Origin: Atopobiaceae bacterium
GTDB lineage: Bacteria > Actinomycetota > Coriobacteriia > Coriobacteriales > Atopobiaceae
Direction: 5' to 3'
Length of the DNA stretch: 64,000 nucleotides
Assembly: GCA_040268355.1 (NCBI GenBank)
Contig: JAWRIT010000020.1
Span: forward strand, 470-64,469
The position numbers and the translations under genes were made by a program. Below the pieces are notes generated by a model. It did not search any database. It was not told where the DNA came from and saw only the letters and a program-made list of their open reading frames with translations. Shown here in pieces: positions 23,120 through 43,557 of the stretch (its first letter is position 1; each line of letters begins with the position of its first letter).

Positions 23120-24836
23120 GCAGCTCGACGTAGCGAGCGTAGACACCGCCGCGCCTTCTGAGCGCTTCGTCGGTGCCGCGCTCGGCGATCTCGCCATCCT
23201 TGATGACGAGAATCTGGTCGGCGTTGCGGACCGTCGCGAGCCGATGCGCGATGACCAGCAGGGTCTTCCCGCGGACGAGCTCCCCGATGGCCGCCTGGAT
23301 GTAGCTCTCGTTATCCGGGTCGACGCTCGCCGTCGCCTCGTCGAGGATGACCACCGGTGCGTCTTTGAGTATGCACCTCGCGATGGAGATCCGCTGCCGC
23401 TCGCCACCCGACAGGTTCGCGCCGCCCTCGCCGACCAGGGTGTCGAACCCGTCTGGCATCTCCTCGATGAAATCGAGGCAGCGCGCCTTGCGTGCCGCCT
23501 CGACGACCTCCTCCCGGGTCGCGTCGGGCCTGCCGAGCGCGATGTTGTTGTACACCGTGTCTCGAAACAGGTAGACCCGTTGGAAGACCATGCCGACATG
23601 CTCCATGAGCTCGGAGAGGGGCACATCGCGCACGTCGACCCCCCGGACGCGAAGGCTGCCGCCGGTCACGTCCCAGAAGCGCGTCAGCAGCTGCGCCACC
23701 GTCGACTTTCCCGAACCCGACGGCCCGACAAGGGCGGTCATGGTGTCCTTTCGCATGCTCAGCGAGATGCCGTGCAGGACCTCTTCGTCGGCGTACGCGA
23801 ACCGCACGTCGTCGTACTCTACCTCGGGGGCATCGCCTCCCCTCTCGGGCGGGATGTGGGAGCACCCCTCGTCGGGGAGCTCGATCTCGGCAAAAAGGGC
23901 GTCCATGCGATCGAGCGCCGCGTTCATGATCGTGAGCTGGGCGCTCTGGTTGTAGAGGGCCCTGAACGGCCCGAACAGGTCGAAGACGAACAGGAGCACT
24001 CCCAAAAGGGCGGTGGCCGCGAGCGTGCCCTGGGAATGGAGGAAGAACGACAGGGCCAGCACGGCGACCGAGCCAAGCCCGTAGAGCAGGTTCAGGGCCA
24101 CGAACCATGGGTTGTAGCGCTTCTCGAACCCTATGCTCGTCCGGCGACTTTGGGCGAAGCTCTCCGTCAGCTCGGCGGCCCGCTCTCCGAGGAGGTTGTA
24201 CGTCTTTGCGATGCCTATGCCCTCTGCGAAGTCGAGCACCGACTGGGTGAGCCTCTCACTCTGCTCCTGCCGTTTTACGGACTCGTCCAGCGCGGTGCCC
24301 TTCATGCCGCGGGCCACGAGCAGAATCAGCGCCGAGACGAACACGGCGGCCAGGCCAAGCCAGGGGGAGAGCAGCATGAGCAGGGCGAGCATGACGATCT
24401 CCGAGAAGATGTAGTTCATCATGTTCGCGATGTCACCCATGCAGCTCTGCTCGACGTAGACCATGTCCACCGATAGGATCGAGCTGATCCGCCCAATGTT
24501 GCCTTCGGTGTAGAAGCCCATCGGCAGCCTCAGCAAATGCCGGCCAAGCTCGAGCCGCTTCTCGGCGAAGATCTCGTACCCAGCTCCCGACTGCAACCGG
24601 TCCGTGACGTTCTGGAGCACCATCTGCGCCGCCACGCAGACGAGGAATATCGTCCCGATCAACAGGCACGTTCGCGCCGTGATGGTGCCGTTGTAGAAAG
24701 ACGCGAGGGCGAGGAAGGAAAGGACTATCGGGGCCTTCGACAGCATCGACTTGACGAAGGCGAGCACGAACGCGGTTCGTATCGCAGCGCGCTTGGCACC
24801 TGCGAGGGAGAGGATCCTCCTGATGAGCGGAATCAT
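23103..24836 (-). CDS. ABC exporter, fused permease/ATPase half-transporter
   Basis: Six-TM domain, then GPSGSGKST, LSGGERQ, VVILDEAT. Confidence 0.9.
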   Translation of the reverse strand: MIPLIRRILSLAGAKRAAIRTAFVLAFVKSMLSKAPIVLSFLALASFYNGTITARTCLLIGTIFLVCVAAQMVLQNVTDRLQSGAGYEIFAEKRLELGRHLLRLPMGFYTEGNIGRISSILSVDMVYVEQSCMGDIANMMNYIFSEIVMLALLMLLSPWLGLAAVFVSALILLVARGMKGTALDESVKRQEQSERLTQSVLDFAEGIGIAKTYNLLGERAAELTESFAQSRRTSIGFEKRYNPWFVALNLLYGLGSVAVLALSFFLHSQGTLAATALLGVLLFVFDLFGPFRALYNQSAQLTIMNAALDRMDALFAEIELPDEGCSHIPPERGGDAPEVEYDDVRFAYADEEVLHGISLSMRKDTMTALVGPSGSGKSTVAQLLTRFWDVTGGSLRVRGVDVRDVPLSELMEHVGMVFQRVYLFRDTVYNNIALGRPDATREEVVEAARKARCLDFIEEMPDGFDTLVGEGGANLSGGERQRISIARCILKDAPVVILDEATASVDPDNESYIQAAIGELVRGKTLLVIAHRLATVRNADQILVIKDGEIAERGTDEALRRRGGVYARYVELLTSQM

Positions 24837-27800
24837 TTGACACCCCTTTCGACCAGGACGGCGTCCCGCTTGTTGTCAACGCCCCAGCAGGCACTTTCTA
24901 CGGCTGCTTGCCAGAGCTTCGAATACCGGTCGCTCGAGGCCAGGAGCTGCTCATGTGTTCCTGTGGCTTCCACGCGTCCGCCGTCCATCACGACGATCTG
25001 GTCCGAGTCCTTGACCGACGGCAACTTGTGCGCGATCACCACGACGGTTTTGCCCCGGATGATGCCCGCGATGGCGGCCCGCATCTTCCGTTCGTTTTCG
25101 GGGTCGATGAAGGCCGTCGCCTCGTCCAGCACGACTATGGGCGCATCCTTGAGCAACGCCCGTGCGAGCGCTATGCGCTGCCGCTCGCCGCCCGACAGCT
25201 TGGCCCCTCCCGCGCCGGCGTTCGTACGGATGCCGTCTGCCAGCCGTGCGAGGAACTCCCCGCATTGCGCCTGCTTTGCGGCAGCCTCCACCTCCTCGTC
25301 CGTTGCCTCGGGCCTGCCGATGCGGATGTTCTCGAGGATGCTCGTGTTGAAGAGGTAGAGGTCCTGCGAGACGTAGGAGATCAGGCCGTTCAAGGACGCG
25401 AGGCTCATGTCCCCCACGTCCTGGCCGCCGATGCGGACACGTCCCCCGGACACGTCGTAGTAGTGCACCAGCAGTTTGGCGAGCGTGGACTTCCCGCTGC
25501 CCGATTCGCCCACTATCGCGGTCGTGGTGCCGTCGGCAATGTCCAGGCTGACGCCCTTTAAGACCTCGACGTCCCCGTAGGAGAACCTGACGTCGGTGAA
25601 GGCTATGGAGTGTCCCTCGCCCGCAAACGGCCCATCGCCCTGCTGCAGGGATTCCGCCGAGAACACCTGCTCCAGGGCATCTATCTTGAAGTTGATCTGC
25701 GGCACGCTCCCCATGAAGTTCACCGCGCGTATGAGCGGCGTGCCCGCCGCTATGCACATGCAGAGCGCGAGGACGAGGTCGGGGACGGTGGAGATGCCCA
25801 TCGTCACGAACCATGCCCCTATGGGCAGCGTGAACAGGCACACACAGGGGATTATGCTGCCGTACACCGCCATCCACGGCCAGCAGACCTTGTACCACGC
25901 CAGCGTGAAATCGCGGTAGTCCGCTACCGAGGCCTGGTAGCGCTCGTAGGACTGCCCACCCTTGTTGAAGACCTTCGCGACTTCCATTCCGTTCACGTAT
26001 TCGATGATGGTGTCGTTCATCCTCTGGCCTGCGGCGTAATACGCGCCCATGCGCGCCATGCCCGCCTTGTACATCCTCCCCATGGCGAACAGGCCTATTG
26101 GCAACGTGAGCAATGAGAGCAGCGCGAGCTTCCAGTCGACGAAGAACAGTGCTGCGAAGATGACGACCGGGACGAGGGTGGTCGCGAACCCCTCGGGGAG
26201 CGCGTGCGCGATCATCGTCTCGAGGGAGTCGATGTCGTCCACGAACATCTTCTTGATCGATCCTGTCCCCATGTCCTGAACGGCCCCCAGGGGCTGCCTC
26301 TCCAGCTTGCCCTGAAGCGACCTGCGCAGGTTCTCGAGCGTGTGGTAAGCGCCCTTGTGCGAAAGGTCCAGCCCCCATGCGTAGAGCACGGCATAGAGGA
26401 GCGCGCAGAGGGCCATGCCTCCCAGCCGCGTTGCGAGGAACGCGGGCTCGATCGGCCCTTTGGCGAGCACCGCCACGACGAGCTCGTAGCTAACGTAGAA
26501 CGGGATGACGTTTGCGAGCGTCGCCAAGACCAGCACGGCCGCCGCGGCGTACGTGTACCTCTTGTGCGGGCCCGCGTACTCTAATAGTTTGGAGAACATG
26601 CTCCTGCCCCCTTCCTCTTCGTGTCGATGCTTTCTCCTGGATGCGCGCTGGCCGTCGTGCAGCCGCGTTGCCCGGTCGGCCGCATCGTCGATGAAGTACT
26701 GCCTCACGCGCTCCCTGCCCTCTGCGTCAAGCGCGTAGAAGGACCTCACATGTCCGTTTTCCATGTGGAGCACGTGCGTGGAGCATCCCAGGATGAGCTC
26801 TAGGTCGTGGGTGATGACCGCGATGACCCTGCCCGCGCCTCTGGCCGACTCCATGAGCTGGAAGTAGCGCTCCATGTTCTCGCGGTCGAGGCCCGACGTG
26901 GGCTCGTCGCAGAAAAGGAGCTCTTTGTTCGAGTAGAGCGCGGATGCGATTGCCAGACGCTGCTTCTGCCCGCCGGACAGCGTGCTCGGGTGCCGGTCCG
27001 AGAGATCGGCCAGGCTCAGGCACTCGAGCAGCCTGCGCCTCTCGCCGGCGTCGTCTCGGGAGCTGCCCATCGCCACCTCATCGGCCACCGATGGTGCGAA
27101 GAGCTGTCGGTTGACGTCCTGCATGACCACGAAGCTCAGGTCGCTGAGTTCGCCCCTCTGCCGAACGGCCCCTTCGAACTGCACGGTCCCGCTACATTCG
27201 AGCAGACCCGACAGGCATCCGACCAGCGTGCTCTTGCCAGCGCCGTTCTCCCCGACGACGGCGACGATGCTGTCATCGGGGATCTCGAGGTGGGGTATGG
27301 AGAGCACGGTCTTGCCGTCGCGCCTGCAGGTCAGGTCTCGCACGGCAAGAGCACACCCCGTCCGGCGGCCCGACCGCTCCCGGCGCTCGCGGCCCCGCGG
27401 TTCGAGATTCCGAAGGTCCGTGCTCCGAAGGCCCAGCCCCTCAAGCTCCCCGTCCTTGAGGTGGACGAGCTCCTCGGGAGTGAAGGCGCAGGTCGCCCTG
27501 CCACCTTCCATGCACACGAACCTGTCTGCAAGGCCTGTCAGATAATGGAGCCTGTGCTCCGCCACGACGATGGTCTTGCCCGCGGACTTGAGCTCTTGGA
27601 GCGCACGGGTAAGACGCACTATCGAGGATATGTCCATGTTCGAAGCCGGTTCGTCCAGCACGAGGACGTCGGGTCCGGTGGCGTGGACCGACCCGACGGC
27701 TATCTGCTGCCTCTCGCCGCCCGACAGCTTGAAGATATCCCTGTCGACCAGGTGCTGCAGCCTGAGGTCGGCTACTGCGCGCCCAACCCGATCCACGATT

Positions 27801-28153
27801 TCCTCTCTGGGCAGCGCCTGGTTCTCGCATCCGAAGGCGAGCTCGCCGGTTGTGTCGAGGTTGAAGAACTGGCTCCTTGGGTTCTGGAACACGCTCCCCA
27901 CGACCCTCGAGATGTCGGACAGCTCGGAGTTGGCGATGTCGAGCTCGCCCACCCACACGTTTCCTGAGAGCTCGCCTTCGTAGTAGTGCGGGACGAGCCC
28001 GTTGATCGCCCTGGTGACCGTCGTCTTCCCACACCCGCTCTTCCCGCAGAGCACCACGAACTCACCCTCGCCGATATCGATGCTGAAGTCGTCGAGGCTC
28101 TTCTCTCCGTTGGCATTGGGATAGCTGCAGCTCACATGTTCCAGCGTGATCAT
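24833..28153 (-). CDS. fusion of a duplicated ECF-type ATPase (two NBDs) with an ABC exporter half-transporter (TMD plus third NBD)
   Basis: One uninterrupted 1106-aa frame. NBD1: GKSGCGKTT / LSGGERQ / VLVLDEP. NBD2: GENGAGKST / LSGGQKQ / LLFCDEP. A TM domain follows, then NBD3: GESGSGKST / LSGGERQ / IVVLDEAT. The internal ATG at 26599 is preceded by GGAAGGGGGCAGGAG. Confidence 0.8.
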   Translation of the reverse strand: MITLEHVSCSYPNANGEKSLDDFSIDIGEGEFVVLCGKSGCGKTTVTRAINGLVPHYYEGELSGNVWVGELDIANSELSDISRVVGSVFQNPRSQFFNLDTTGELAFGCENQALPREEIVDRVGRAVADLRLQHLVDRDIFKLSGGERQQIAVGSVHATGPDVLVLDEPASNMDISSIVRLTRALQELKSAGKTIVVAEHRLHYLTGLADRFVCMEGGRATCAFTPEELVHLKDGELEGLGLRSTDLRNLEPRGRERRERSGRRTGCALAVRDLTCRRDGKTVLSIPHLEIPDDSIVAVVGENGAGKSTLVGCLSGLLECSGTVQFEGAVRQRGELSDLSFVVMQDVNRQLFAPSVADEVAMGSSRDDAGERRRLLECLSLADLSDRHPSTLSGGQKQRLAIASALYSNKELLFCDEPTSGLDRENMERYFQLMESARGAGRVIAVITHDLELILGCSTHVLHMENGHVRSFYALDAEGRERVRQYFIDDAADRATRLHDGQRASRRKHRHEEEGGRSMFSKLLEYAGPHKRYTYAAAAVLVLATLANVIPFYVSYELVVAVLAKGPIEPAFLATRLGGMALCALLYAVLYAWGLDLSHKGAYHTLENLRRSLQGKLERQPLGAVQDMGTGSIKKMFVDDIDSLETMIAHALPEGFATTLVPVVIFAALFFVDWKLALLSLLTLPIGLFAMGRMYKAGMARMGAYYAAGQRMNDTIIEYVNGMEVAKVFNKGGQSYERYQASVADYRDFTLAWYKVCWPWMAVYGSIIPCVCLFTLPIGAWFVTMGISTVPDLVLALCMCIAAGTPLIRAVNFMGSVPQINFKIDALEQVFSAESLQQGDGPFAGEGHSIAFTDVRFSYGDVEVLKGVSLDIADGTTTAIVGESGSGKSTLAKLLVHYYDVSGGRVRIGGQDVGDMSLASLNGLISYVSQDLYLFNTSILENIRIGRPEATDEEVEAAAKQAQCGEFLARLADGIRTNAGAGGAKLSGGERQRIALARALLKDAPIVVLDEATAFIDPENERKMRAAIAGIIRGKTVVVIAHKLPSVKDSDQIVVMDGGRVEATGTHEQLLASSDRYSKLWQAAVESACWGVDNKRDAVLVERGVK

Positions 28154-29831: not shown

Positions 29832-30098
29832 CTAGTGCTCCCCATAGTGCGACTTGCAGGAAGCGATCTCCAGGTTCACTCCCACGATGCGGTAGACGAG
29901 GCGGTTCTGATCGTCTATCCGGCACGACCAGAAGCCCGCTAGATCCCCGCGCAACGGCTCCGGCTTGCCCACGCCCTCGAACGGGTCGCCGCGATCGATG
30001 TCCTTTATGAGGGCGTTGATGCGCCTGAGCGTCTTGCGGTCCTGCGCTTGCCACCAGACGTAGTCCTCCCACGCCTCCGGGGCCCAGACTTTATTCAT
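29832..30098 (-). CDS. yoeB: YoeB/Txe family type II toxin
   Basis: WEDYVWWQAQDRKTLRRINALIKDIDRGDPFEGVGKPEPLRGDLAGFWSCRIDDQNRLVYRI is the YoeB signature. Confidence 0.9.
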   Translation of the reverse strand: MNKVWAPEAWEDYVWWQAQDRKTLRRINALIKDIDRGDPFEGVGKPEPLRGDLAGFWSCRIDDQNRLVYRIVGVNLEIASCKSHYGEH

Positions 30099-30351
30099 CG
30101 TCGTCGGCTAGCTCGTGGGCGACACCGTGACCGGCGTTGAGGTCGGCAACCGAGCGGCGCAGATGGGCGAGGTTCTCAGCGCTGTAGAACGGGTCGACCG
30201 AAACCTCGAACGGGATGCGACGCTCGCGGCCCATCTTCTTCGCGAAGATGGTGAATGCGGTGGTCATGCTCATCCCGAGCTCCCGGCAGACCGCCTCCAT
30301 GTCCCTTTTGACATCCTGGTCCATGCGTATGTTCACCATTGCGGTTGCCAT
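30091..30351 (-). CDS. RelB/DinJ-type antitoxin paired with YoeB
   Basis: VNIRMDQDVKRDMEAVCRELGMSMTTAFTIFAKKM is an RHH of the DinJ type. 8-nt overlap with yoeB. Confidence 0.8.
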   Translation of the reverse strand: MATAMVNIRMDQDVKRDMEAVCRELGMSMTTAFTIFAKKMGRERRIPFEVSVDPFYSAENLAHLRRSVADLNAGHGVAHELADDDE

Positions 30352-33617: not shown

Positions 33618-33821
33618 ATGAAGTACTCCGAGCTCCTGGAAAGCGGTGCAACGGCTGCTCAGCGACAGGACTTTCTCACTGAGGGCGACCAAACACCTAT
33701 CACTCTCCGGGTTCCCAAGAACCTCAAGGATGCGGCTGCTGAGGCTGCCAAACTCCGCGGCATCAGCTTCTCCGCCTTCATCCGCAACTGCATCATCAAC
33801 GAGCTTGCGGGGAGGGCATAG
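33618..33821 (+). CDS. ribbon-helix-helix (CopG-like) protein, possible controller of the downstream operon
   Basis: Start at ATG 33618 (AGGAGGG upstream). ITLRVPKNLKDAAAEAAKLRGISFSAFIRNCIINEL has a beta-strand plus two-helix RHH pattern. Confidence 0.65.
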   Translation: MKYSELLESGATAAQRQDFLTEGDQTPITLRVPKNLKDAAAEAAKLRGISFSAFIRNCIINELAGRA

Positions 33822-33822
33822 C

Positions 33823-34521
33823 GTGGCATCGCAGGTTAAGTCGCGTCAGAGAGTACAAGACCACGGCGAAGTGTTCACCAACGAGCGCGAGGTGAACGCC
33901 ATGCTGGACATGGTGAAGCAGGAGACCGAGCGCATCGACTCCCGCTTCCTCGAACCCGCCTGCGGCGACGGCAACTTCCTCGCGGAGGTTCTGCGGCGCA
34001 AGCTTGCCGTCGTCAACAGCCGCTACCGCCGCTCGCTTTCCGAGTATGAGAAGTACACGTTCGTGGCCGTCGGCAGCATCTACGGCGTGGAGCTGCTTCA
34101 CGACAACGCCGTCGCCTGTCGCGACCGCCTTTATGGCATCGTGGAGGCAGACTATATGCGCGTGTGCAAGAAGTCGCCGACGCCCGGCTACCTTGACGCC
34201 ATCCGCTTCGTCTTGGAGCGCAACATCTTGAACGGCAACGCCCTCAGCCTCAAGGCTGTGGACGAATCAGGCTCGGACACTGATGAGCCGATCATCTTCT
34301 CGGAGTGGTCCATCGTTACCGGCGACCGAGTTAAGCGCAGGGACTTTCGCCTGGACGAGATGCTAGAGGGCAGCGCCGATCAGGCTCAATTCTCTCTTTT
34401 CGGATCTAGCGGTACCCCGACATCCGAGTGGGAGTTCGACGAGGAGACCGGAGCACTGATTCCCAAACCCATCTGGGAATACCCGTTGATTAGGCTGTAT
34501 GAGGTGCAGAACGATGAGTAA
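33823..34521 (+). CDS. SAM-binding DNA-methyltransferase-like protein lacking the NPPY catalytic motif
   Basis: GTG start at 33823 (GGGGAGGG upstream, 1 nt after the RHH stop). GEVFTNEREVNAMLDMV and motif I FLEPACGDGNFL are present, as are YGVELLHDNAVACRDRL and ILNGNAL. No (N/D)PP(Y/F) anywhere in the 232 aa. Confidence 0.7.
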   Translation: MASQVKSRQRVQDHGEVFTNEREVNAMLDMVKQETERIDSRFLEPACGDGNFLAEVLRRKLAVVNSRYRRSLSEYEKYTFVAVGSIYGVELLHDNAVACRDRLYGIVEADYMRVCKKSPTPGYLDAIRFVLERNILNGNALSLKAVDESGSDTDEPIIFSEWSIVTGDRVKRRDFRLDEMLEGSADQAQFSLFGSSGTPTSEWEFDEETGALIPKPIWEYPLIRLYEVQNDE

Positions 34522-35965
34522 CCTATTCGAGGCGACATACAACCCTGACGTGTTGAGCTGTATCGCCAACCTCAGCAATGACGAGGTCTTTACGCCACCC
34601 GAGCTTGCAAACCAGATACTTGAGTTGTTGCCTGATGGCATATGGAGCGACCCGAACGTCACTTTCTTGGACCCCGCAAGTAAGTCAGGAATCTTCCTGC
34701 GTGAGATAGCTAAGCGCCTTATTGACGGACTTGAGGACGAGCTCTCCGACCTAGAGGAGAGACTTGACCACATCTATCGAAAGCAGCTGTTCGGCGTTGC
34801 GATAACCGAGCTTACAAGCCTGCTTTCGCGGCGCAGCGTCTATTGCTCAAAGTACCCGAACAGTATCTACTCCGTCGTCAGGTTCGACGACGCAGCCGGC
34901 AACATACGCTTCAAGAACACTGAGCATGTTTGGTCAGGCGGACGCTGCGTCTACTGCGGCGCAACACAGAAGGAATACGACCGCGACAAAACGCTTGAAC
35001 AGTACGCATACGAATTCATACACCTGGATGACCCAGAAGAGGTTCTGCCCATGAAGTTTGACGTTATCGTCGGCAATCCGCCATATCAGCTCAGCGATGG
35101 CGGCAACAACGCTTCCGCCATGCCCATTTACCAGAAGTTCGTGGAGCAGGCAAAGAAGCTTAACCCGCGCTACCTGGTCATGATTACGCCCTCGCGGTGG
35201 TTCTCAGGCGGCCGAGGGCTTGACGCATATCGAGCAACAATGCTCGGCGACCGACGCATCAGGAAGCTTGTCGACTTCGAGGACGCCAACGATTGCTTCC
35301 CCGGCGTGGATATGTCGGGCGGCGTGTCGTACTTCCTGTGGGACCGAAATTACGATGGTAACTGCACTGTCGTGAACATGAAGAACGGGGTCGGAACCGA
35401 GCAACAGCGTGACCTGCGCAGATACGATATCCTTATCCGTTCGAACGAGGCCGTTTCCATCGTGGATAAAGTGCTCAGCCACACGTCGGCGTTCCTCAGC
35501 AAATACGTCAGCAGCCAACGGCCTTTCGGTTTGAGGACGTTTGCAAAGCCTTCCAAGAAGGGTGATTTGACCCTCAGGTGGCGCGAGGGCAAAGGCCCTA
35601 TAAGCAGCAGCGAGATTACTATCGGCAAGGAGTGGATAAACAAGTGGAAGGTCATCGTATCCCGTGTCGTATACGAACATGCCGGTGGAACCGACGCACA
35701 GGGCATGCGCCGCATCCTCTCTATCCTCGAGGTGCTTGGTCCGAAGGAGGTCTGCACCGAAACCTACATCGTCATCAAGACCTTTGACACCCAGGAGGAG
35801 GCGCAGAACTGTTACGAATACCTCTCGTTGAAGTTCCCCCGTTTCCTTATCAGCCAGGTCGCATCTGCCCAGATGGTCAACAAGAAGTCCTTCACCTTTG
35901 TGCCAGACGTAGACTTCACGAGAAGCTGGACGGAAGGAGCTTTACGACGAATTCGGGCTCGATGA
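34514..35965 (+). CDS. N6-adenine DNA methyltransferase (Eco57I-like, gamma class), C-terminal tail frameshifted
   Basis: ATG 34514 overlaps the upstream stop (ATGAGTAA). DEVFTPPELANQILELLP, motif I FLDPASKSGIFL, motif IV IVGNPPYQ. After ...SWTE the family-typical tail ELYDEFGLDEEEIAYIESHIKKMN continues in another frame to the TAA at 36030-36032. Confidence 0.85.
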   Translation: MSNLFEATYNPDVLSCIANLSNDEVFTPPELANQILELLPDGIWSDPNVTFLDPASKSGIFLREIAKRLIDGLEDELSDLEERLDHIYRKQLFGVAITELTSLLSRRSVYCSKYPNSIYSVVRFDDAAGNIRFKNTEHVWSGGRCVYCGATQKEYDRDKTLEQYAYEFIHLDDPEEVLPMKFDVIVGNPPYQLSDGGNNASAMPIYQKFVEQAKKLNPRYLVMITPSRWFSGGRGLDAYRATMLGDRRIRKLVDFEDANDCFPGVDMSGGVSYFLWDRNYDGNCTVVNMKNGVGTEQQRDLRRYDILIRSNEAVSIVDKVLSHTSAFLSKYVSSQRPFGLRTFAKPSKKGDLTLRWREGKGPISSSEITIGKEWINKWKVIVSRVVYEHAGGTDAQGMRRILSILEVLGPKEVCTETYIVIKTFDTQEEAQNCYEYLSLKFPRFLISQVASAQMVNKKSFTFVPDVDFTRSWTEGALRRIRAR

Positions 35966-36021
35966 GGAGGAGATCGCCTACATCGAAAGCCACATCAAAA
36001 AGATGAACACGGGTGACGGCG

Positions 36022-38988
36022 ATGCCAAGTAAAGAATTCTTTCCGCCACGGCCGGATGCGCAGCCGATTATCTACGCCTTCTGCGAACCCAATAATCGCG
36101 ATGTCAAGGGCATGCTCAAGGTCGGCTATACGGCCCGCACTTTAGAGGAGCGCATGCACGAGCACTATCCGACGTTAAAGCCTGGGCCAGTGCCCTACGA
36201 GGTCGTGTTCGTCGCCCCTGCCATGCGCACCGACGGCACGACGTTCATGGACCACGAGATCCACGAGAACCTTGCGCTGAACGGATTCAAGAAGCAGCGT
36301 GATCACGACGGCAAGAAGACCGAGTGGTTCCGCTGCACGCTCGATGACGTGAAGGCTGCATACATCGCCGTTCGTGACCGGGCCGAAAACGTCGAGCGAC
36401 GCACCCGCGACTTCAAGATGCGACCCGAGCAGGAGACCGCCGTACACAAGACTGAGGCATACTTCCACTCCGTCGAGAACGAGGGCGGCGCTCTCACGCC
36501 GAAGTTCCTGTGGAACGCCAAGATGCGGTTCGGCAAGACGTTCGCCACCTACGAGCTTGCCAAGCGCATGGGCTTCAAGCGAGTGCTGATCCTGACCTTC
36601 AAGCTCGCCGTGCTGGCGGCGTGGGAGGAAGACCTGAACACGCACGTTGACTTCGAGGGCTGGCAGTTCGTGAGCCGGCCGAAGGACCCGACCAGGCCCG
36701 ACATCGCCCAGCAGTACGCCAAGGCCGACAAGAGCAGGCCGATCGTATGCTTCGGCAGCTTCCAGGACTTCCTTGGGCGTGAGGCTCGTACGGGACGCAT
36801 CAAGGCCCACCACGAGTGGGTGCGCGAGGAGGACTGGGACCTCGTCGTGTTCGACGAGTACCACTTCGGCGCGTGGAACGACAACTCCAAGAAGCTTTTC
36901 GAGCAGGAGGAAGAGGACGAGCGCGACACCACCGAGGTCACCGACACGCGGCTCGGCAAGGTGAACACCGGCAACGAGGTGAACGAGGGCGACCTGCCCA
37001 TCGTGACGCGCTACTACCTGTTCCTCTCCGGCACGCCCTTCCGGGCGCTCAACAGCGGCGAGTTCATTGAGGAGCAGATCTACAACTGGACCTACTCCGA
37101 CGAGCAGGCGGCCAAGGAGGCCTGGCCCGCCGAGCATCCCGGCAAGCCCAACCCGTACGCGTCGCTGCCGCGCATGGTGATGCTCGCCTACCAGATGCCC
37201 GACGAGATAAAGAACGTGGCGCTGGGTGGCGAGTACAACAGCTTCGACCTGAACGCCTTCTTCGAGGCGACCGGCGAGGGCGACAGCGCGGAGTTCGTGC
37301 TCAAGGACTCGGTCCAGAAGTGGCTCGACCTTATACGCGGCTCCTACAAGCCCTCTGCCGTGGACGACCTCAAGCTGGGCGCCGAGAAACCAGCTCTTCC
37401 ATACGCCGACACGCGCCTGCTGCGGGTGCTCAATCACACGCTCTGGTACCTGCCGCGCGTGAACAGCTGCTACGCGATGCGCAACCTCCTGCGCGAACCG
37501 CAGAACGTGTTCTTCCACGACTACACAATCAACGTATGTGCGGGCACCGAGGCCGGCATCGGCATGGTCGCGCTCGACAAGGTGCGCGAGACCATGGAGG
37601 ACCCGCTGCACTCCCAAACCATCACGCTGACCTGTGGCAAGCTGACCACGGGCGTGACCGTTAAGCCGTGGTGCGGGATATTCATGCTCGCCAACATGCG
37701 CAGCCCCGAAACCTACTTCCAGGCCGCCTTCCGCGTGCAGTCGCCATGGACCGTAGAAAACGACGCCAGCAAGATGGAGATCGTGAAGCAGGAATGCTAC
37801 GTTTTCGACTTCGCTCTAGACCGGTCGCTCCGTATGGTCTCCGACTACTCATGCCGCCTGAAGGTGGACGGGAATGTGGGTCCCGAGCAGAAGGTCGGCG
37901 AGTTCATCAACTTCCTTCCCGTGCTTGCCTATGACGGCAGCGCCATGCGTCCCGTGAGCGCGGCTGACATCCTCGACATCGCCATGGCTGGCACATCCGC
38001 GACGCTGCTTGCAAGGCGCTGGGAATCCGCTCTGCTTGTCAACGTGGACAACGACACGCTTCGCCGCATCCTCAACAACGAGGACGCGCTCAACGCCCTC
38101 ATGAGCATCGAGGGCTTCCGCTCGCTCAACGCCGACATCGAGACCATCATCAATCGGTCCGAGGCCATCAAGAAGGTCAAGCGTGGGAAGGAAGAGATGA
38201 CCCCCAAGGAGAAGAAGCAGATCTCCGAGGAGGAGAAGGAGCTCAAGAGCAAGCGCAAGCAGATCCAGGAGAAGCTGATCAAGTTCGCCACGCGCATACC
38301 GGTCTTCATGTACCTGACCGACTACCGCGAGGAGACCCTGAAGGACGTTATCACGCAGCTTGAGCCAGGGCTCTTCAAGAAGGTGACCGGCCTCACCGTC
38401 GCTGACTTCGAGCTGCTGGTATCTCTCGGCGTCTTCAACGACGCGTTGATGAACGATGCCGTTTACAAGTTCCGCCGCTACGAGGACTCCTCGTTGCGCT
38501 ACACCGGCATCGACCGACACGCTGGCGAGCGCGTCGGCTTGTTCGACACGTCGCTCAGCGAGTTCGAGTACATGGCCATGGCCCAAGAGGAGTCGATGGT
38601 TGCGCCGAACGGTCTTGCGAGGCCCGTCGGGCGTGCGACCGGCGCGAGCGCGAAGGTACCCACACGCAAACTGGCTGCTGCCAGCAAGCCTGCAGGCGGC
38701 GGCGACACGCGCACGGCCAAGGCCACCGTGCCCGTGGCAAAGCCCACGCCCAAGAAGGCCGAGAGCCGCAGGATCGAGCGCGGCGACGCCCGCACGGCCG
38801 CCAAGCCCTCCCAGAATGCAGCGAGGCGTGACTGGATCGTTGAGGCGCTGGAAGACGCCGGGCTCAAGTACCTGGACAAGCGCGGCAACTCTGGCTGCCT
38901 GTGGGTCATCGGCGCGAGCGAACTCTCTGGCCGCATGAAGGAGCTTGAGCTGCGCGGGGCGCGGTTCAGGTTCAGCTCGACGACCTAG
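36022..38988 (+). CDS. T5orf172/GIY-YIG nuclease domain fused to an SF2 (DExH, type III Res-like) helicase
   Basis: N-terminus: IIYAFCEP...MLKVGYTARTLEERMHEH...TEWFRCTLDDV (T5orf172-type GIY-YIG). Helicase motif I MRFGKTF, motif II VVFDEYHFG, motif III FLSGTPF. Lys/Glu-rich coiled segment near aa 700-750. Confidence 0.8.
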   Translation: MPSKEFFPPRPDAQPIIYAFCEPNNRDVKGMLKVGYTARTLEERMHEHYPTLKPGPVPYEVVFVAPAMRTDGTTFMDHEIHENLALNGFKKQRDHDGKKTEWFRCTLDDVKAAYIAVRDRAENVERRTRDFKMRPEQETAVHKTEAYFHSVENEGGALTPKFLWNAKMRFGKTFATYELAKRMGFKRVLILTFKLAVLAAWEEDLNTHVDFEGWQFVSRPKDPTRPDIAQQYAKADKSRPIVCFGSFQDFLGREARTGRIKAHHEWVREEDWDLVVFDEYHFGAWNDNSKKLFEQEEEDERDTTEVTDTRLGKVNTGNEVNEGDLPIVTRYYLFLSGTPFRALNSGEFIEEQIYNWTYSDEQAAKEAWPAEHPGKPNPYASLPRMVMLAYQMPDEIKNVALGGEYNSFDLNAFFEATGEGDSAEFVLKDSVQKWLDLIRGSYKPSAVDDLKLGAEKPALPYADTRLLRVLNHTLWYLPRVNSCYAMRNLLREPQNVFFHDYTINVCAGTEAGIGMVALDKVRETMEDPLHSQTITLTCGKLTTGVTVKPWCGIFMLANMRSPETYFQAAFRVQSPWTVENDASKMEIVKQECYVFDFALDRSLRMVSDYSCRLKVDGNVGPEQKVGEFINFLPVLAYDGSAMRPVSAADILDIAMAGTSATLLARRWESALLVNVDNDTLRRILNNEDALNALMSIEGFRSLNADIETIINRSEAIKKVKRGKEEMTPKEKKQISEEEKELKSKRKQIQEKLIKFATRIPVFMYLTDYREETLKDVITQLEPGLFKKVTGLTVADFELLVSLGVFNDALMNDAVYKFRRYEDSSLRYTGIDRHAGERVGLFDTSLSEFEYMAMAQEESMVAPNGLARPVGRATGASAKVPTRKLAAASKPAGGGDTRTAKATVPVAKPTPKKAESRRIERGDARTAAKPSQNAARRDWIVEALEDAGLKYLDKRGNSGCLWVIGASELSGRMKELELRGARFRFSSTT

Positions 38989-39002
38989 AGCCGGGTGACA
39001 CT

Positions 39003-39155
39003 GTGCTTCACAAGGCCTTCGGATACGGGCGGATCATCGACATCGATGAGTCCTACGTGGAAGTCACGTTCGACTCGGACAACAAGAAGAAGAAATCGTC
39101 TCGCAAGTTCATCTTCCCTGGGGCGTTCCACCAGGGGCTGCTGCAGATTGGGTAG
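39003..39155 (+). CDS. 50-aa ORF resembling the small beta-barrel tail found at the C-terminus of UvrD-like helicases
   Basis: Not in the ORF track (<60 aa). The frame opens at 38949 and reads LEPGDTVLHKAFGYGRIIDIDESYVEVTFDSDNKKKKSSRKFIFPGAFHQGLLQIG-stop. The only canonical start is GTG 39003. It may instead be the frameshifted tail of the helicase. Confidence 0.35.
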   Translation: MLHKAFGYGRIIDIDESYVEVTFDSDNKKKKSSRKFIFPGAFHQGLLQIG

Positions 39156-39162
39156 GTGTGTC

Positions 39163-42100
39163 TTGGGAATATTCGATAAGTTCAACAATCAGAGCTTGAG
39201 CAATCAGGATGCTTTCGAGGAACTGTGCTGCCAGCTCTTCGAGACATGGGGTGTGCATTCAAGGGGCTTTGATAGCGGTTGGGATTATCGAGACATCCGA
39301 GGTGCCGGTGGCGACGGGGGCATTGAGGCCTATTGGTATAACCAGAATGACGACCAGTACATCGGTATTCAGGCGAAGTGGTTCCCAAAGACCATCACAG
39401 ACAATCAATATGGGCAGGTAAGAGGCTCAATCAAAACGGCGGTGGAACTACGACCGACCTTGTCCACATACATCATCTGCATACCGCATAATCTTACATC
39501 CGTGCATGTTGGAAGGGGTAAGATCGTAACACCCGGAGAAGAAGCGTCATGGAAGTCGTTCGTGGACGAGATCGCTGAGGATTATCCCAAGGTCAAGTTC
39601 TTGCTCTGGGACGAGCATCACATCGAAAACCTGCTGCAAGATCCTGCGAATGAAGGTCGCCTACGGTTTTGGTTCAAAAAGTCTGCGGTTAACCCAGCTA
39701 CCGTAAAGCTTGCCTTGAACGAAGCAATCCAAAGCCTTAATGATCGTTATGTGCCTGAGATCACCGATGATGGCGGCCTTGCTACTTTTCTTGACAACTT
39801 CTTTGGCACGATTGAAAGTAGAAAGCTCACGGTCAAGGACATCGATGCCTGCCTGGATGTCTGCCACAGCCTTGAATACGTCACCGATTCTTTCATTGGC
39901 GTAGGGGACAAGATATCGGATGAGCTCAAGTCTTCGACCATCCGATGCCACGATGCCATTTGTGCGTATGCCGATGCCCTATCCCAGTGGCGCTCCGCGC
40001 TCATTGCGGAGCCGCGTGGGCTGATTAATGTTGCAAGCATGACTGTCGATTACGGTGCAATCGAAGAGTTCGAATCCGACATCCAGGACCTGAAGGACAA
40101 ATACAAGCTTACCGGACATGCGGATGAGCTGATTAAGCTGATCGATAAGTTCAGAGGGCTGCCTGGCGAATATGAGATTCGACAGGCAATGCACTATGCT
40201 TTCAGCTCCCCTCACTGTCTTGTTGTCGGCGAGCAAGGAACCGGTAAGACCTGTGGGTTCGCAAGCGAAGCTACCGGCTACCTCAACAACGGGAAGCATT
40301 TACCCATCCTTTTGAGAGCCGGCGACATCAGCGAGCATGACGGTTGGAGGCAGATAATCACGAGCGCCCTTGGCCTTACCGACTGGACGGAAGCTCAGCT
40401 ATGGCAAGCGTTGAGTGCGTCCGCTGCCATGTACGACAAGCGTGAGGATGATATTACCGTCAGGGCAAAAGTTGCGATCTTTGTTGATGGGCTGGATGAA
40501 AAGCAGCCTGCGTCACGATGGACGACACTCATCAGGCAAGGCGATGCAATCGCAAAGGAATACCCGAGAATGAGATTCGCTTATTCCACGCGTCCTCACG
40601 GTGTTGAACGTGACGGTGCCGATGATTTGTGGGACTGCTGGTACCGTATCGATAAAAACGGTGATGTTCCTGCATGGAAGCTTTTCGACCGTTATATTGA
40701 GCACTACTCAATAGATCTGGATGGCAATACCCGTTATAAGTGGCTGCTCAAAACGCCCATGGAGTTGCACATGTTCTGCACCGCTTATGGCGGAAGACCA
40801 ATCGACAGGGAGGTTTCAACCTGCCTGACCTCTCTCGTTAGGGCCGAGGTCAAGAGGCTTGATGAAGAGTATGCCGCACGTAACGCGAAATCGAATGGTA
40901 TCCACGAAACACCAGTCTGGTCCACGCTCGCCGCACTTGCGAACTCGTTCCTGCTGGATGATAGCCCTCGGGATCGCGCAATAATTGGCGGTTTGATAGG
41001 GGTGACTGGGATTCAACGTGAAGATATTGGCTTGATGCTCGACTTTCTCGAAATGTACGGGATTCTTACTACCGTACGAAATCTTGGTCCTACGAGTGTG
41101 TCTCCTCCCGTATTCACATATCAGCCCGGTTCACGTCATTTGTGGGACTACTTCATGGCTGTAATGCTCATGAATACCGATGACGGAATGGCCGCCGAAC
41201 TCCTCTCCAAACATAAAGACACTGCTCGCATGTACGCGATATTGCTGGTTGAAAAATGCGGCACCCTGCCCCTTGAGAGCAATGCTCTCGTCAACGCCCT
41301 TGGAACCGGCGGAGCTCGCCGGGTGACCATAGATGCTCTGGCAAGCGCGGAGAAGGGTGCTGCCGGCAAATTCAGGCAGTGGGCGCTTGGCGAGATGGCA
41401 AAGGGCAGAGAATCACTCTCTGAGATCGTCAATGGCATAGTCGTTCAAGTAGCGTGCGAGCAGGATCACCCTCTTGGGCCTCTGATGTTCGATGAGTACA
41501 TGAGAACATTCCCAACGCCAATCGAACGAGATCGGGTATGGGCGACACCAAGGGAGATGTCAAACGGCTACGGACTGTCGATGTACTACGAGCGAGATGC
41601 CGTGCGACACTTGCCTCGGCTACACGAGAACGATCACTGGAATCAAATGCCGCTCTTATTGGCCTGGTGCCTGATTGCAGTCAGCAACCTGCAACGGCGT
41701 CACTGCAGAAACGAGCTAGTGCAGTGGGCAATGACCAATCCCGACGAGTATGCCGAGCTGTTTGCACGGTTTGTCAATTGCGATGACCCTCAAGTCCGTG
41801 AAGACATGTTTGCCATCGCAGAGGAGGTAGTCTGTCAAGGAGAGGCAGACTTGAGCGTCAAGAAACGTTTTGCTGACATCGTTCTCGAGGCCTTATTCAA
41901 GAATCCTGACAAACCAGGAAACAGGGACGCCTCGCTGCGCCATTACGGAAGGATGCTTGTCGAGCATTGTGGCGAGAAAGGACTTGTCGGCCAGAAAGAC
42001 ATCGAACTGTGCAGGCCGCCTTACGCAGTTGAAGACAGATCGATTGCACTGCCCATTTACGCCGCCGCTGCCGAATCGGAACGAATGGGCGGTTACGAGA

Positions 42101-43557
42101 CCATCCACTACGACCTGGCCCGCTATGTGCTCGTAGACAAGCTTGAAAGCGCGTTCGGTATTTCTCGTTTCCATGGCAACGGCGACCACGACTTCGACGA
42201 TGCGCTGCAAATCGTCAAAAGGTCTGCTGATGCAGCGGGCATCGACGTGCCGAAGTTTGAGGGATGGGTTATTTCCGCCGCTTACCAGTACCTCGTTGAC
42301 CATGGTTACGATACAGACGCTTTCGTCGGCCCCCTCGATGACGAAGGCTATCGCCATGGAGGCATCGACTATAAGATATCTGGTGCATTCGGAAGCGCCG
42401 ACCATGGTTCAAGAAGCACGGTCATGACAGTCGCTGAGAAGTACGCCTGGTGCGCAAGGGCTGAAATCTGCGGTTTCATGGCAGACAGGGTGCCAATGTA
42501 TAGGAGCGCCTGGCAGAACGGTAATACCAACGAATCCTATGAGCTTGTCCACGACTACTCAGACCTGCTCAGTTATCAAAGCCCCCTTTTCGAGGCAACT
42601 GTGAACAGACTGACGGTGGAACGGGAGGGCATCACACCGGTTTTCCCACCCGCTTTCACGTGCGAGGACGGCGATCAGTTATGTTCGGAGCAAGAGCTCA
42701 ATGATTGGATCGGGGCGGGTGACGCCGAGTCCCTTGTTTCGCTCATCGAGCATGTGCCCGACGTTGATTTCTCGATTGATGGATCCACCGTTCCCGTTGC
42801 GCTATATGCAAGCGACTGGGGGATTTGCGGCAAGCAGGCCCGCGCTTGGATCTACGCTGGAGCCATGGCTTCCAGCGAACTTTCCAAGCTTTCGGAATTC
42901 GGGACGGTGGCAATAGCAGGCTACGACCATGCCTCCGCATTTGCTACGGGCATTGCTTGCGAAGCAACCTATATCTCGCCAGTCGAATACTTGTCAGCTC
43001 CTTGGCTTACCGAATACGACGAGGACCACGAGAGGGCTAAGATAGCCGATGTCCATGTCGAGGCATCACCTCTATCAGGAAGCGGTGTTGACAGCCTTAC
43101 TGACATTGGAGATTGCTGGTATCGATTCCCCTCAAAGCTTGCGATGGACCTGTGTGGAGTAACGCGCACCGACGGCGTACGCTACTTCGATACGAATGGC
43201 ATGGTCGCGTTTGAGGATATTGAGTATGGTGAGCCTTACAGGAAACATTACCAGGCTTTGCTTGCAAGCAGAGACAGACTTTATGGAGCCCTTGACGAGA
43301 GAGACTTGCATCCCGTTTGGTATGTCACTCTCCAAAGAGATGGCAACAGGCTTGCTGATGAACGGTTGCGTCAGGTCGATGCGCGCACCGAAACTTCTTG
43401 GCTGATTTGGATAGGGGCAGACGACAAGTACTGTTCGTGTCTCATGTCGGATGAGTATCCCGTGCCAGAACGGACTTATGAACCATCAGGGCTAATTGCA
43501 GAATTCCTTGAAAAGTATGCCGCTCATGATGACGAGGGCGAGGAAACAAGCGACTAG
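39163..43557 (+). CDS. Mrr-like PD-(D/E)xK nuclease - NACHT/STAND NTPase - large uncharacterised C-terminal domain
   Basis: Preferred start is TTG 39163 (GGGTAGGTG upstream; alternative TTG 39148). Nuclease core GAGGDGGIEAYW...IGIQAKW (39301-39381). Walker A VVGEQGTGKT (~40228-40251). Walker B AIFVDGLDE (~40474-40500). About 950 further aa have no repeat periodicity I can see. Confidence 0.8.
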   Translation: MGIFDKFNNQSLSNQDAFEELCCQLFETWGVHSRGFDSGWDYRDIRGAGGDGGIEAYWYNQNDDQYIGIQAKWFPKTITDNQYGQVRGSIKTAVELRPTLSTYIICIPHNLTSVHVGRGKIVTPGEEASWKSFVDEIAEDYPKVKFLLWDEHHIENLLQDPANEGRLRFWFKKSAVNPATVKLALNEAIQSLNDRYVPEITDDGGLATFLDNFFGTIESRKLTVKDIDACLDVCHSLEYVTDSFIGVGDKISDELKSSTIRCHDAICAYADALSQWRSALIAEPRGLINVASMTVDYGAIEEFESDIQDLKDKYKLTGHADELIKLIDKFRGLPGEYEIRQAMHYAFSSPHCLVVGEQGTGKTCGFASEATGYLNNGKHLPILLRAGDISEHDGWRQIITSALGLTDWTEAQLWQALSASAAMYDKREDDITVRAKVAIFVDGLDEKQPASRWTTLIRQGDAIAKEYPRMRFAYSTRPHGVERDGADDLWDCWYRIDKNGDVPAWKLFDRYIEHYSIDLDGNTRYKWLLKTPMELHMFCTAYGGRPIDREVSTCLTSLVRAEVKRLDEEYAARNAKSNGIHETPVWSTLAALANSFLLDDSPRDRAIIGGLIGVTGIQREDIGLMLDFLEMYGILTTVRNLGPTSVSPPVFTYQPGSRHLWDYFMAVMLMNTDDGMAAELLSKHKDTARMYAILLVEKCGTLPLESNALVNALGTGGARRVTIDALASAEKGAAGKFRQWALGEMAKGRESLSEIVNGIVVQVACEQDHPLGPLMFDEYMRTFPTPIERDRVWATPREMSNGYGLSMYYERDAVRHLPRLHENDHWNQMPLLLAWCLIAVSNLQRRHCRNELVQWAMTNPDEYAELFARFVNCDDPQVREDMFAIAEEVVCQGEADLSVKKRFADIVLEALFKNPDKPGNRDASLRHYGRMLVEHCGEKGLVGQKDIELCRPPYAVEDRSIALPIYAAAAESERMGGYETIHYDLARYVLVDKLESAFGISRFHGNGDHDFDDALQIVKRSADAAGIDVPKFEGWVISAAYQYLVDHGYDTDAFVGPLDDEGYRHGGIDYKISGAFGSADHGSRSTVMTVAEKYAWCARAEICGFMADRVPMYRSAWQNGNTNESYELVHDYSDLLSYQSPLFEATVNRLTVEREGITPVFPPAFTCEDGDQLCSEQELNDWIGAGDAESLVSLIEHVPDVDFSIDGSTVPVALYASDWGICGKQARAWIYAGAMASSELSKLSEFGTVAIAGYDHASAFATGIACEATYISPVEYLSAPWLTEYDEDHERAKIADVHVEASPLSGSGVDSLTDIGDCWYRFPSKLAMDLCGVTRTDGVRYFDTNGMVAFEDIEYGEPYRKHYQALLASRDRLYGALDERDLHPVWYVTLQRDGNRLADERLRQVDARTETSWLIWIGADDKYCSCLMSDEYPVPERTYEPSGLIAEFLEKYAAHDDEGEETSD

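Follow-up and report, generated by a model that had tools for sequence, protein, structure and literature searches.

Can a motor of the Type ISP kind drive a GIY-YIG nuclease, and what does a 'split methylase' do? These questions are raised by an open reading frame (ORF) of an Atopobiaceae bacterium, hereafter called R, located in a stretch of 64,000 nucleotides (nt) of contig JAWRIT010000020.1 (GenBank assembly GCA_040268355.1), hereafter called the window. An earlier reading of this DNA, made without database searches and referred to here as the sequence-only reading, had described the product of R as a GIY-YIG nuclease fused to a DExH helicase and as the apparent restriction subunit of a methylation-linked system. 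The analysis presented here makes it highly probable that R is the R subunit of a restriction-modification (RM) system of the DrdVI family, encoded in an operon M1-M2-R, whose mechanism would resemble that of Type ISP and Type I enzymes. The features of the locus are collected in Table 1.

The R frame is open on the + strand from a GTG at 36013, or an ATG at 36022, to the stop at 38988. The ATG at 36022 was taken as the start codon, because homologues of R begin with MPS(K/D)EFFP and the database copy has 988 amino acids (aa). Residues 15-103 of the predicted protein hold QPIIYAF, LKVGYT, EERMHEH and TEWF, and RFGKTF (motif I), FDEYH (motif II) and LSGTPF (motif III) follow downstream; all of the motifs quoted in the sequence-only reading (IIYAF, KVGYT, ERMHEH, EWF, GKT, DEYH and SGTP) were thus found in R. 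With at least 8000 homologues at 60-88 % identity, the observation is far beyond chance.

The DrdVI system is found on plasmid pDrdVI (CP031164) of Deinococcus wulumuqiensis NEB 479 and is listed in REBASE as M1.DrdVI, M2.DrdVI and DrdVI. Its genes are annotated, in this order, as 'DNA methyltransferase' (212 aa), 'Eco57I ... methylase' (539 aa) and 'DEAD/DEAH box helicase' (851 aa). The window M1 has 42 % amino acid sequence identity with M1.DrdVI (2e-49) and the window M2 44 % with M2.DrdVI (1e-145), and across 861 columns R shows 54 % identity with the 'DEAD/DEAH box helicase family protein' of pDrdVI (E 0.0). M1-2.DrdVI has been cloned, found to produce N6-methyladenine (m6A) at GCAGCC and typed as IIG (Fomenkov et al. 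2019; PMC6430315), and DrdVI has been called 'a fused translocase and REase', its endonuclease domain being of the GIY-YIG type and M1 and M2 its partners (PMC4996451). A similar 'split methylase/RM', M1/M2.MaeIV, places m6A on GCACY (PMC10113651); in both systems M1 and M2 jointly modify a short asymmetric site. By homology, the window operon is a member of this catalogued, widespread and little-studied family, and the interpretation first offered for R is supported in part: the pairing of nuclease and motor does differ from that of textbook Type I and Type III enzymes, but the novelty implied for it does not hold, since the DrdVI family is already catalogued.

Searches with PADLOC and NCBIfam returned no named system beyond the generic 'REase_MTase_IIG' and the candidate PDC-S57. 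The REBASE-derived PADLOC model REase_MTase_IIG PDLC03626 has 1359 positions, of which 137-802 align with R residues 126-785 and 863-1320 with M2; because the model covers both proteins in series, R and M2 together resemble one fused enzyme.

With an E value of 1.2e-12 and 48.6 bits (cut-off 20), residues 19-117 in the N-terminal domain of R matched the Pfam family T5orf172 (PF10544), and MUG113 was matched as well (2e-8, 35.1 bits; cut-off 22.3). An AlphaFold2 model of residues 1-138, made with an alignment of 48 sequences, had a predicted local distance difference test score (pLDDT) of 85 and a predicted template modelling (TM) score of 0.76, with the topology beta1(16-21)-beta2(32-37)-alpha1(41-48)-beta3(60-66)-alpha2(77-86) followed by two strands and the helix alpha3. 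Y18 is placed on beta1, K33-x-G35-x-T37 on beta2, R44 on alpha1 and E101 before the last helix; R has the beta-beta-alpha-beta-alpha core, with a tyrosine on beta1, an arginine on alpha1 and a conserved acidic metal ligand, that marks a GIY-YIG domain. Y18, K33, G35, T37, R44, D77, H81 and E101 were invariant across 48 relatives of R. A set of 90 sequences, consisting of R and 89 cluster representatives that are mutually at most 50 % identical, kept Y18 and K33 in all members, G35 in 88, D77 and E101 in 87 each, R44 in 80 and H81 in 78, and each of the eight residues, T37 included, in 76-90 of the 90. When the domain was compared with predicted viral structures (BFVD) by Foldseek, T5orf172 proteins were matched with probability 1.0 and E values down to 7e-5.

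The N-terminal domain of R is a T5orf172-type GIY-YIG module, predicted from its modelled fold to be a nuclease. The Pfam match, the model topology, the Foldseek result and the conserved Tyr, Arg and Glu agree on what the sequence-only reading had proposed, such a module ahead of a DExH helicase; the agreement is at the level of the T5orf172 family, as the Foldseek search of the Protein Data Bank (PDB) gave no significant match. T5orf172 is named among the nuclease domains of N6-adenine (N6A) R-M systems (PMC4738411). The family was originally annotated as DNA-binding, and names such as 'Bacteriophage T5 Orf172 DNA-binding' persist, so the module might instead bind DNA or regulate, with R acting by BREX-like interference without cutting or through another effector. 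This would agree with the lack of a significant Foldseek match to solved GIY-YIG nucleases and with a literature in which no cleavage assay for the family was found, yet we consider it very unlikely: T5orf172 has been placed in the GIY-YIG endonuclease superfamily, and a member from phage ICP1, Gp88, was reported to be an origin-directed nuclease (PMC8263062). The catalytic-type residues Y18, R44 and E101 are kept across the superfamily at the frequencies given above, no other nuclease is conserved in the operon, and the N-terminal module is swapped in the lactococcal fused relatives described below, as expected of an exchangeable effector.

Among relatives of R, the motifs RPEQ, GKT, DEYH, SGTP and QAAFRVQSP of the motor were essentially invariant. 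The Pfam family ResIII was matched at residues 134-297 with 23.2 bits, just over the cut-off of 22.5. The top PDB match of the full-length R model in Foldseek was the Type ISP enzyme LlaBIII (4xqk_B, E 9.5e-10, 775 columns), followed by Snf2-family double-stranded DNA (dsDNA) translocases and ZorD, and judged by its predicted fold the motor is most plausibly a dsDNA translocase resembling those of Type ISP and Snf2 proteins. PDB sequence searches with R, its 48-sequence profile, M1, M2 and a lactococcal fused relative gave no meaningful match; sequence-based membership in the LlaGI/LlaBIII family was rejected, as nothing meaningful was obtained with R or its profile. The conserved helical region that follows the motor occupies the position of the coupler in Type ISP enzymes and, by analogy, may function in a similar way.

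Three translationally coupled genes form the operon: M1 (33823-34521), M2 (34514-36032 after frame correction) and, in last place, R (36022-38988). M1 starts with the GTG at 33823 and keeps motifs X, I, II and III (GEVFT, FLEPACGDGNFL, YGVEL and NILNGNAL, respectively), without the catalytic motif (D/N)PP(Y/F). It has at least 8000 homologues, which carry the NCBI name 'SAM-dependent DNA methyltransferase' (SAM, S-adenosylmethionine), and its homology with M2 is confined to motifs X-I (hhalign 1e-11). Non-catalytic partner, SAM sensor and adaptor are candidate roles for M1. M2, the ATG of which at 34514 gives an 8-nt overlap with the M1 stop that is typical of the family, matched Pfam Eco57I with an E value of 1.2e-36. 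Its NPPY motif and a Cys/His cluster are invariant in the family; the cluster lies in an insert between motifs II and IV at residues about 111-148 (invariant C111, H138, C145 and C148 in alignment numbering) and suggests a putative zinc-binding element. Column identity is 0.6-0.8 in the catalytic half of M2, as against 0.30-0.43 in the hypervariable residues about 270-450, which in the alignment look like a target-recognition region under diversifying pressure.

The linkage of these genes was followed in a scan of one genome per species, which gave at least 561 relatives of R. The best 80, with 58-87 % identity, span Actinomycetota, Bacillota, Planctomycetota, Bacteroidota, Pseudomonadota, Desulfobacterota, Verrucomicrobiota and others. 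M2 was found upstream of R in 69 of the 70 loci with at least 1.7 kb of upstream sequence, abutting or overlapping R in 53, and a separate M1 in 49 of the 53 loci with at least 3.7 kb. The sequence-only reading had asked whether homologues of R always stand beside two methyltransferase-like genes; almost always they do, and given the GIY-YIG module, its fusion to a superfamily 2 (SF2) motor and this adjacency, 'restriction subunit' remains the best reading of R.

Some loci depart from this arrangement. About 16 have unrelated cargo ORFs between M2 and R; ORFs of 130-324 aa were seen in this position in L006, L009, L012, L014, L017, L030, L031, L034, L039, L042, L043, L052, L059 and L078. As they are mutually unrelated, they were rejected as core components. 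The R gene of L068 is interrupted, leaving a 74-aa duplicate of the R N-terminus. A single 536-aa chimera takes the place of M1 and M2 in L007 (6398-8008), with an M1-like N-terminus (QQVKSRERVRAHGEVFTNPREVNAMLDMVKQETDRIDSRF) continuing as M2 from motif I (LDPACKSGVF), and it looks like the product of recombination between the paralogous motif X-I regions. In the same class as the window, L094 (G046:C1 3091500-3103500) encodes a 471-aa Eco57I-type methylase, a 228-aa ORF without Pfam match and a helicase protein of 1112 aa. The C-terminal end of the helicase protein resembles the M2 N-terminus (tblastn 7e-10), and the module boundaries are permuted. The Corynebacterium crudilactis plasmid pCRULAC2 (L097; NZ_CP015624.1 12011-14569) carries a lone R homologue, 54 % identical to R, which immediately follows aph(3'')-Ib / aph(6)-Id and transposase genes. 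M1 and M2 were not found in the 12.5 kb covered, and it appears to be an orphaned R subunit.

An exhaustive HMMER search yielded 3906 representatives of 50 %-identity clusters from many phyla, and 1024 of these had E < 1e-30. The representatives include single polypeptides, 1193-1496 aa long, in which T5orf172, ResIII and an Eco57I methylase follow one another in this order; by their domain order these chains are Type ISP-like fusions with a predicted GIY-YIG head. On plasmids of Enterococcus and Lactococcus, an M1 homologue (hhalign 6e-38) is followed by a fused enzyme of 1456-1461 aa, and the lactococcal fused relatives carry another N-terminal module in place of T5orf172, so that the nuclease head appears exchangeable. 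Split and fused forms are spread patchily in the class of the window (30 of 201 genomes, 22 of 94 genera), and members of the family are carried on plasmids of Enterococcus, Lactococcus and Lactiplantibacillus. The operon itself sits in a low-GC (guanine plus cytosine) island. A mobile defence system fits the hypervariable recognition region of M2, the patchy spread and the position in an island beside an Avs2-like gene.

Beyond the helical region, the full-length model of R contains a small alpha-beta-beta-alpha domain with block-mean pLDDT of 76-90. It was found only in Coriobacteriia-type relatives, such as L001, L002, L004-L006 and L008, and had no match in Pfam. Relative to the 87 %-identical L004, the window is without 109 nt near 38980, the frame shifts, R ends at 38988 and a C-terminal Tudor domain is displaced from the frame. 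The family profile of this C-terminal region, A5, matches structures of the UvrD C-terminal domain (7egt, 7e-5; 7egs and 6yi2, 3e-4), and weak Pfam matches to CarD_TRCF_RID and PcrA_UvrD_tudor were obtained for the region. As judged from the alignment, R of the window is a protein that has lost its C-terminal Tudor domain by a frameshifting deletion, a point that the sequence-only reading had not weighed. The Tudor domain is present in most members of the family. Natural members of 826-860 aa, including the 851-aa DrdVI, are without any C-terminal extension, so loss of the Tudor tail need not inactivate R.

The Tudor domains of UvrD and PcrA bind RNA polymerase. The match of the family C-terminal domain to them could suggest that R is not a defence protein at all, and is instead a helicase-nuclease of repair or transcription that the Tudor tail would recruit to RNA polymerase, with the methylases as epigenetic regulators; in B. 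subtilis, DnmA is an orphan methylase with a regulatory role (PMC9973331). We find this scarcely credible, since R is strictly coupled in an operon to a methylase with a hypervariable recognition region, the patchy spread across phyla at 60 % identity or more indicates horizontal transfer, the genes are carried on plasmids and in a low-GC island beside an Avs2-like gene, and the Tudor tail is missing from many members, DrdVI among them.

The second lesion concerns M2. Past ...FTRSWTE, the M2 frame meets a stop at 35965, and the conserved tail, KELYDEFGLDEEEIAYIESHIKKM..., goes on in another frame to 36032. Homologues of M2 are 503-540 aa long and end with ...WTDEELY.KYGLT.EEI.FIE..IK.M, whereas the window ORF has 483-488 aa. 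The tail frame overlaps the ATG of R at 36022 by 11 nt, which bears out the sequence-only reading, where the start of R had been placed in overlap with the corrected methylase tail.

Judging from these losses, the window copy may be attenuated or inactive, and the lost invariant tail of M2 is a more worrying lesion than the lost Tudor tail. The locus could thus be a decaying relic in which M2, R or both are inactive and which at most methylates or does nothing, as is the case for the B. subtilis DnmA cluster, inactive in this host (PMC9973331); decayed DrdVI-like systems have been reported from Bibersteinia (PMC4996451), and the orphan R beside transposon and aph genes on the Corynebacterium plasmid is of the same tenor. 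The source assembly is a draft of 183 contigs, which suggests short-read data, in which indel errors should be uncommon, and a base-calling artefact is an unlikely source of the 109-nt gap. In the other direction, no damage is seen in M1, in the catalytic half of M2 or in the nuclease and motor cores of R, where every invariant residue is present, and members without the C-terminal extension occur naturally. A host whose methylase was dead would be poisoned by an active R, and still the core of R bears no further damage; both lesions, moreover, are read from draft assembly sequence. A relic is therefore a serious possibility, to which we nevertheless do not incline, and it bears on the state of the window copy, not on the identity of the family.

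If R is the R subunit of a DrdVI-family RM system, the parts would work together as follows. M2 would use its variable C-terminal region, and act jointly with M1, to recognise the site and methylate host DNA. At unmethylated sites the M1-M2 module would recruit or activate R, the SF2 motor of which would translocate dsDNA with ATP. Cutting of the DNA would fall to the N-terminal GIY-YIG domain, probably at a distance from the site and possibly upon collision or stalling. Type ISP and Type I enzymes are the model from which cleavage, its position and its dependence on ATP are inferred.

Several observations weigh against this interpretation. No endonuclease or ATP-dependent cleavage assay for DrdVI or any other member of the family was found in the literature consulted, and the analogous DnmA-YeeB-YeeC of B. 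subtilis has no restriction activity (PMC9973331). The full-length R model is of moderate confidence (pLDDT 67), and R has no sequence-level similarity to any solved structure, those of LlaGI and LlaBIII included. The N-terminal domain gave no PDB match with E < 1 in Foldseek, the best relevant one being the GIY-YIG nuclease At-HIGLE (7wme, TM 0.41/0.37, E 1.4), and the local copy has two frame disruptions, in the M2 tail and at the R Tudor domain, known from the draft assembly.

A bolder version of the assignment was also considered, in which DrdVI-type systems would form a mechanistically distinct ATP-dependent class: a GIY-YIG nickase on a Type ISP/Snf2-like motor, with a heteromeric 'split' methylase containing an obligatory, non-catalytic, NPPY-less M1, and with most members tethered by the Tudor domain to RNA polymerase or another host machine. 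In that case restriction might be coupled to transcription of invading DNA. We regard this version as rather unlikely.

Table 1 Features of the R locus and its neighbours in the window
Feature	Position	Strand	Evidence
R subunit (988-aa T5orf172/GIY-YIG nuclease - SF2 translocase fusion, DrdVI homologue)	36022..38988	+	ORF, Pfam, PADLOC, homologues
T5orf172 / GIY-YIG-type nuclease domain, predicted (R residues 15-119)	36064..36378	+	Pfam, AlphaFold2 model, Foldseek, conserved residues
SF2 DExH dsDNA-translocase core (R residues about 131-600): RPEQ, GKT, DEYH, SGTP, QAAFRVQSP	36412..37821	+	Motifs, fold match
Conserved all-helical region after the motor (R residues about 601-858)	37822..38595	+	High conservation, predicted helical, within PDLC03626 alignment
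Small alpha-beta-beta-alpha domain (WIVEALEDAGLKYLDKRGNSGCLWVIG...), lineage-specific	38830..38952	+	Full-length model
Out-of-frame remnant of UvrD/PcrA-type Tudor domain (DLEPGDTVLHKAFGYGRIIDI...FPGAFHQGLLQIG)	38949..39155	+	Alignment to L004, profile
M1 subunit ('mtA'), 232 aa, methylase-like, without NPPY	33823..34521	+	Motifs, DrdVI homology
M2 subunit ('mtB'), gamma-class N6-adenine methyltransferase (FLDPASKSG, NPPY), frameshifted near 35934	34514..35965	+	Pfam Eco57I
Displaced out-of-frame conserved M2 tail: KELYDEFGLDEEEIAYIESHIKKMNTGDGDAK-stop	35934..36032	+	Family alignment
Small ribbon-helix-helix-like ORF, 67 aa from MKYSELL, preceding M1	33618..33821	+	Weak Pfam DUF6290 (9e-5, below cut-off)
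Avs2-like STAND NTPase gene	39163-43557		PADLOC Avs2 6e-60

Only L001 and L004, the closest relatives, have the small ribbon-helix-helix (RHH) ORF directly in front of M1 (tblastn 1e-28 and 3e-21, respectively), and the ORF was for this reason rejected as a core component; it is a possible controller or regulator of the operon. The Avs2-like gene starts at a TTG, 7 nt past the Tudor remnant. As none of the 80 related loci has this gene, it was rejected as part of the RM system and is an independent neighbour. At the left edge of the low-GC island (29832-30351, - strand) there are two small overlapping ORFs of 88 and 86 aa, which on inspection by eye resemble a toxin of the YoeB type and its partner, an antitoxin of the RelB/DinJ type. 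Further to the left (24833-28153, - strand), a 1106-aa ORF with three ABC (ATP-binding cassette) ATPase stretches and an ABC transmembrane region in Pfam adjoins a Trep_Strep membrane protein gene.

Taken by itself, the window copy is one more, partly broken, example of a very common, horizontally transferred RM family that is named in REBASE. The interest lies with the family, which has thousands of members across many phyla, in its cleavage mechanism, its catalytically incomplete M1 and its UvrD-type Tudor tail.

Several known systems can be set beside the window operon. The Type III (Res/Mod) and Type I (HsdR/M/S) systems also combine an ATP-dependent SF2 motor subunit with a separate methylase, and ResIII is the Pfam family of the motor. 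They differ in having a PD-(D/E)xK nuclease, methylases of other classes and no M1-like partner. This nuclease is C-terminal in Res and N-terminal in HsdR (PMC2790908), so that in Type III Res the domain order is reversed with respect to the window R and the nuclease fold is unlike; the ResIII score of R is barely over the threshold.

Morgan et al. (2009; PMC2731913) proposed that MmeI-like methylases make up a restriction system with the helicase and the GIY-YIG protein encoded at their flanks (YeeA/B/C), and a homologous DnmA-YeeB cluster has been reported to affect phage sensitivity in Vibrio, the B. subtilis cluster being inert (PMC9973331). The DnmA(YeeA)-YeeB-YeeC systems of B. subtilis and Vibrio crassostreae resemble the window operon in that an N6A methylase is joined by an SF2 helicase and a T5orf172/GIY-YIG protein, in a conserved operon located in defence islands, and in the proposed logic by which the methylase would supply specificity and the helicase and nuclease would restrict (PMC2731913, PMC9973331). 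They differ in gene layout: the helicase and GIY-YIG genes are separate, there is a single MmeI-like methylase and the order is methylase-helicase-nuclease, whereas in the window nuclease and helicase are in one ORF and the methylase is split into M1 and M2 of the Eco57I type.

In the Type ISP enzymes LlaGI and LlaBIII (PDB 4XQK), a nuclease, an SF2 dsDNA translocase, a helical connector and a gamma-class N6A methylase with recognition domain follow one another in the order also seen here, and the fused single-chain relatives of the window R reproduce this domain order. Type ISP relatives with GIY-YIG nucleases were mentioned by Sisakova et al. (2013; PMC3553950). In contrast to the window R, with which no sequence similarity was detected, LlaGI and LlaBIII have a nuclease of the Mrr-type PD-(D/E)xK kind instead of T5orf172/GIY-YIG, and a Type ISP enzyme is a single polypeptide, whereas the window enzyme is divided into R and M2 and has the extra protein M1.

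Compared with the DrdVI system itself, the window R adds a low-complexity linker, the small alpha-beta-beta-alpha domain and the now out-of-frame Tudor domain to the extent of the 851-aa DrdVI, which has no extension. The window operon is preceded by the RHH gene and carries the two frame disruptions, and the recognition region of M2 differs, the window target site probably not being GCAGCC. In both systems, three genes stand in the same order with overlapping stops and starts, M1 is without NPPY, and R is a fusion of a GIY-YIG domain with a translocase.

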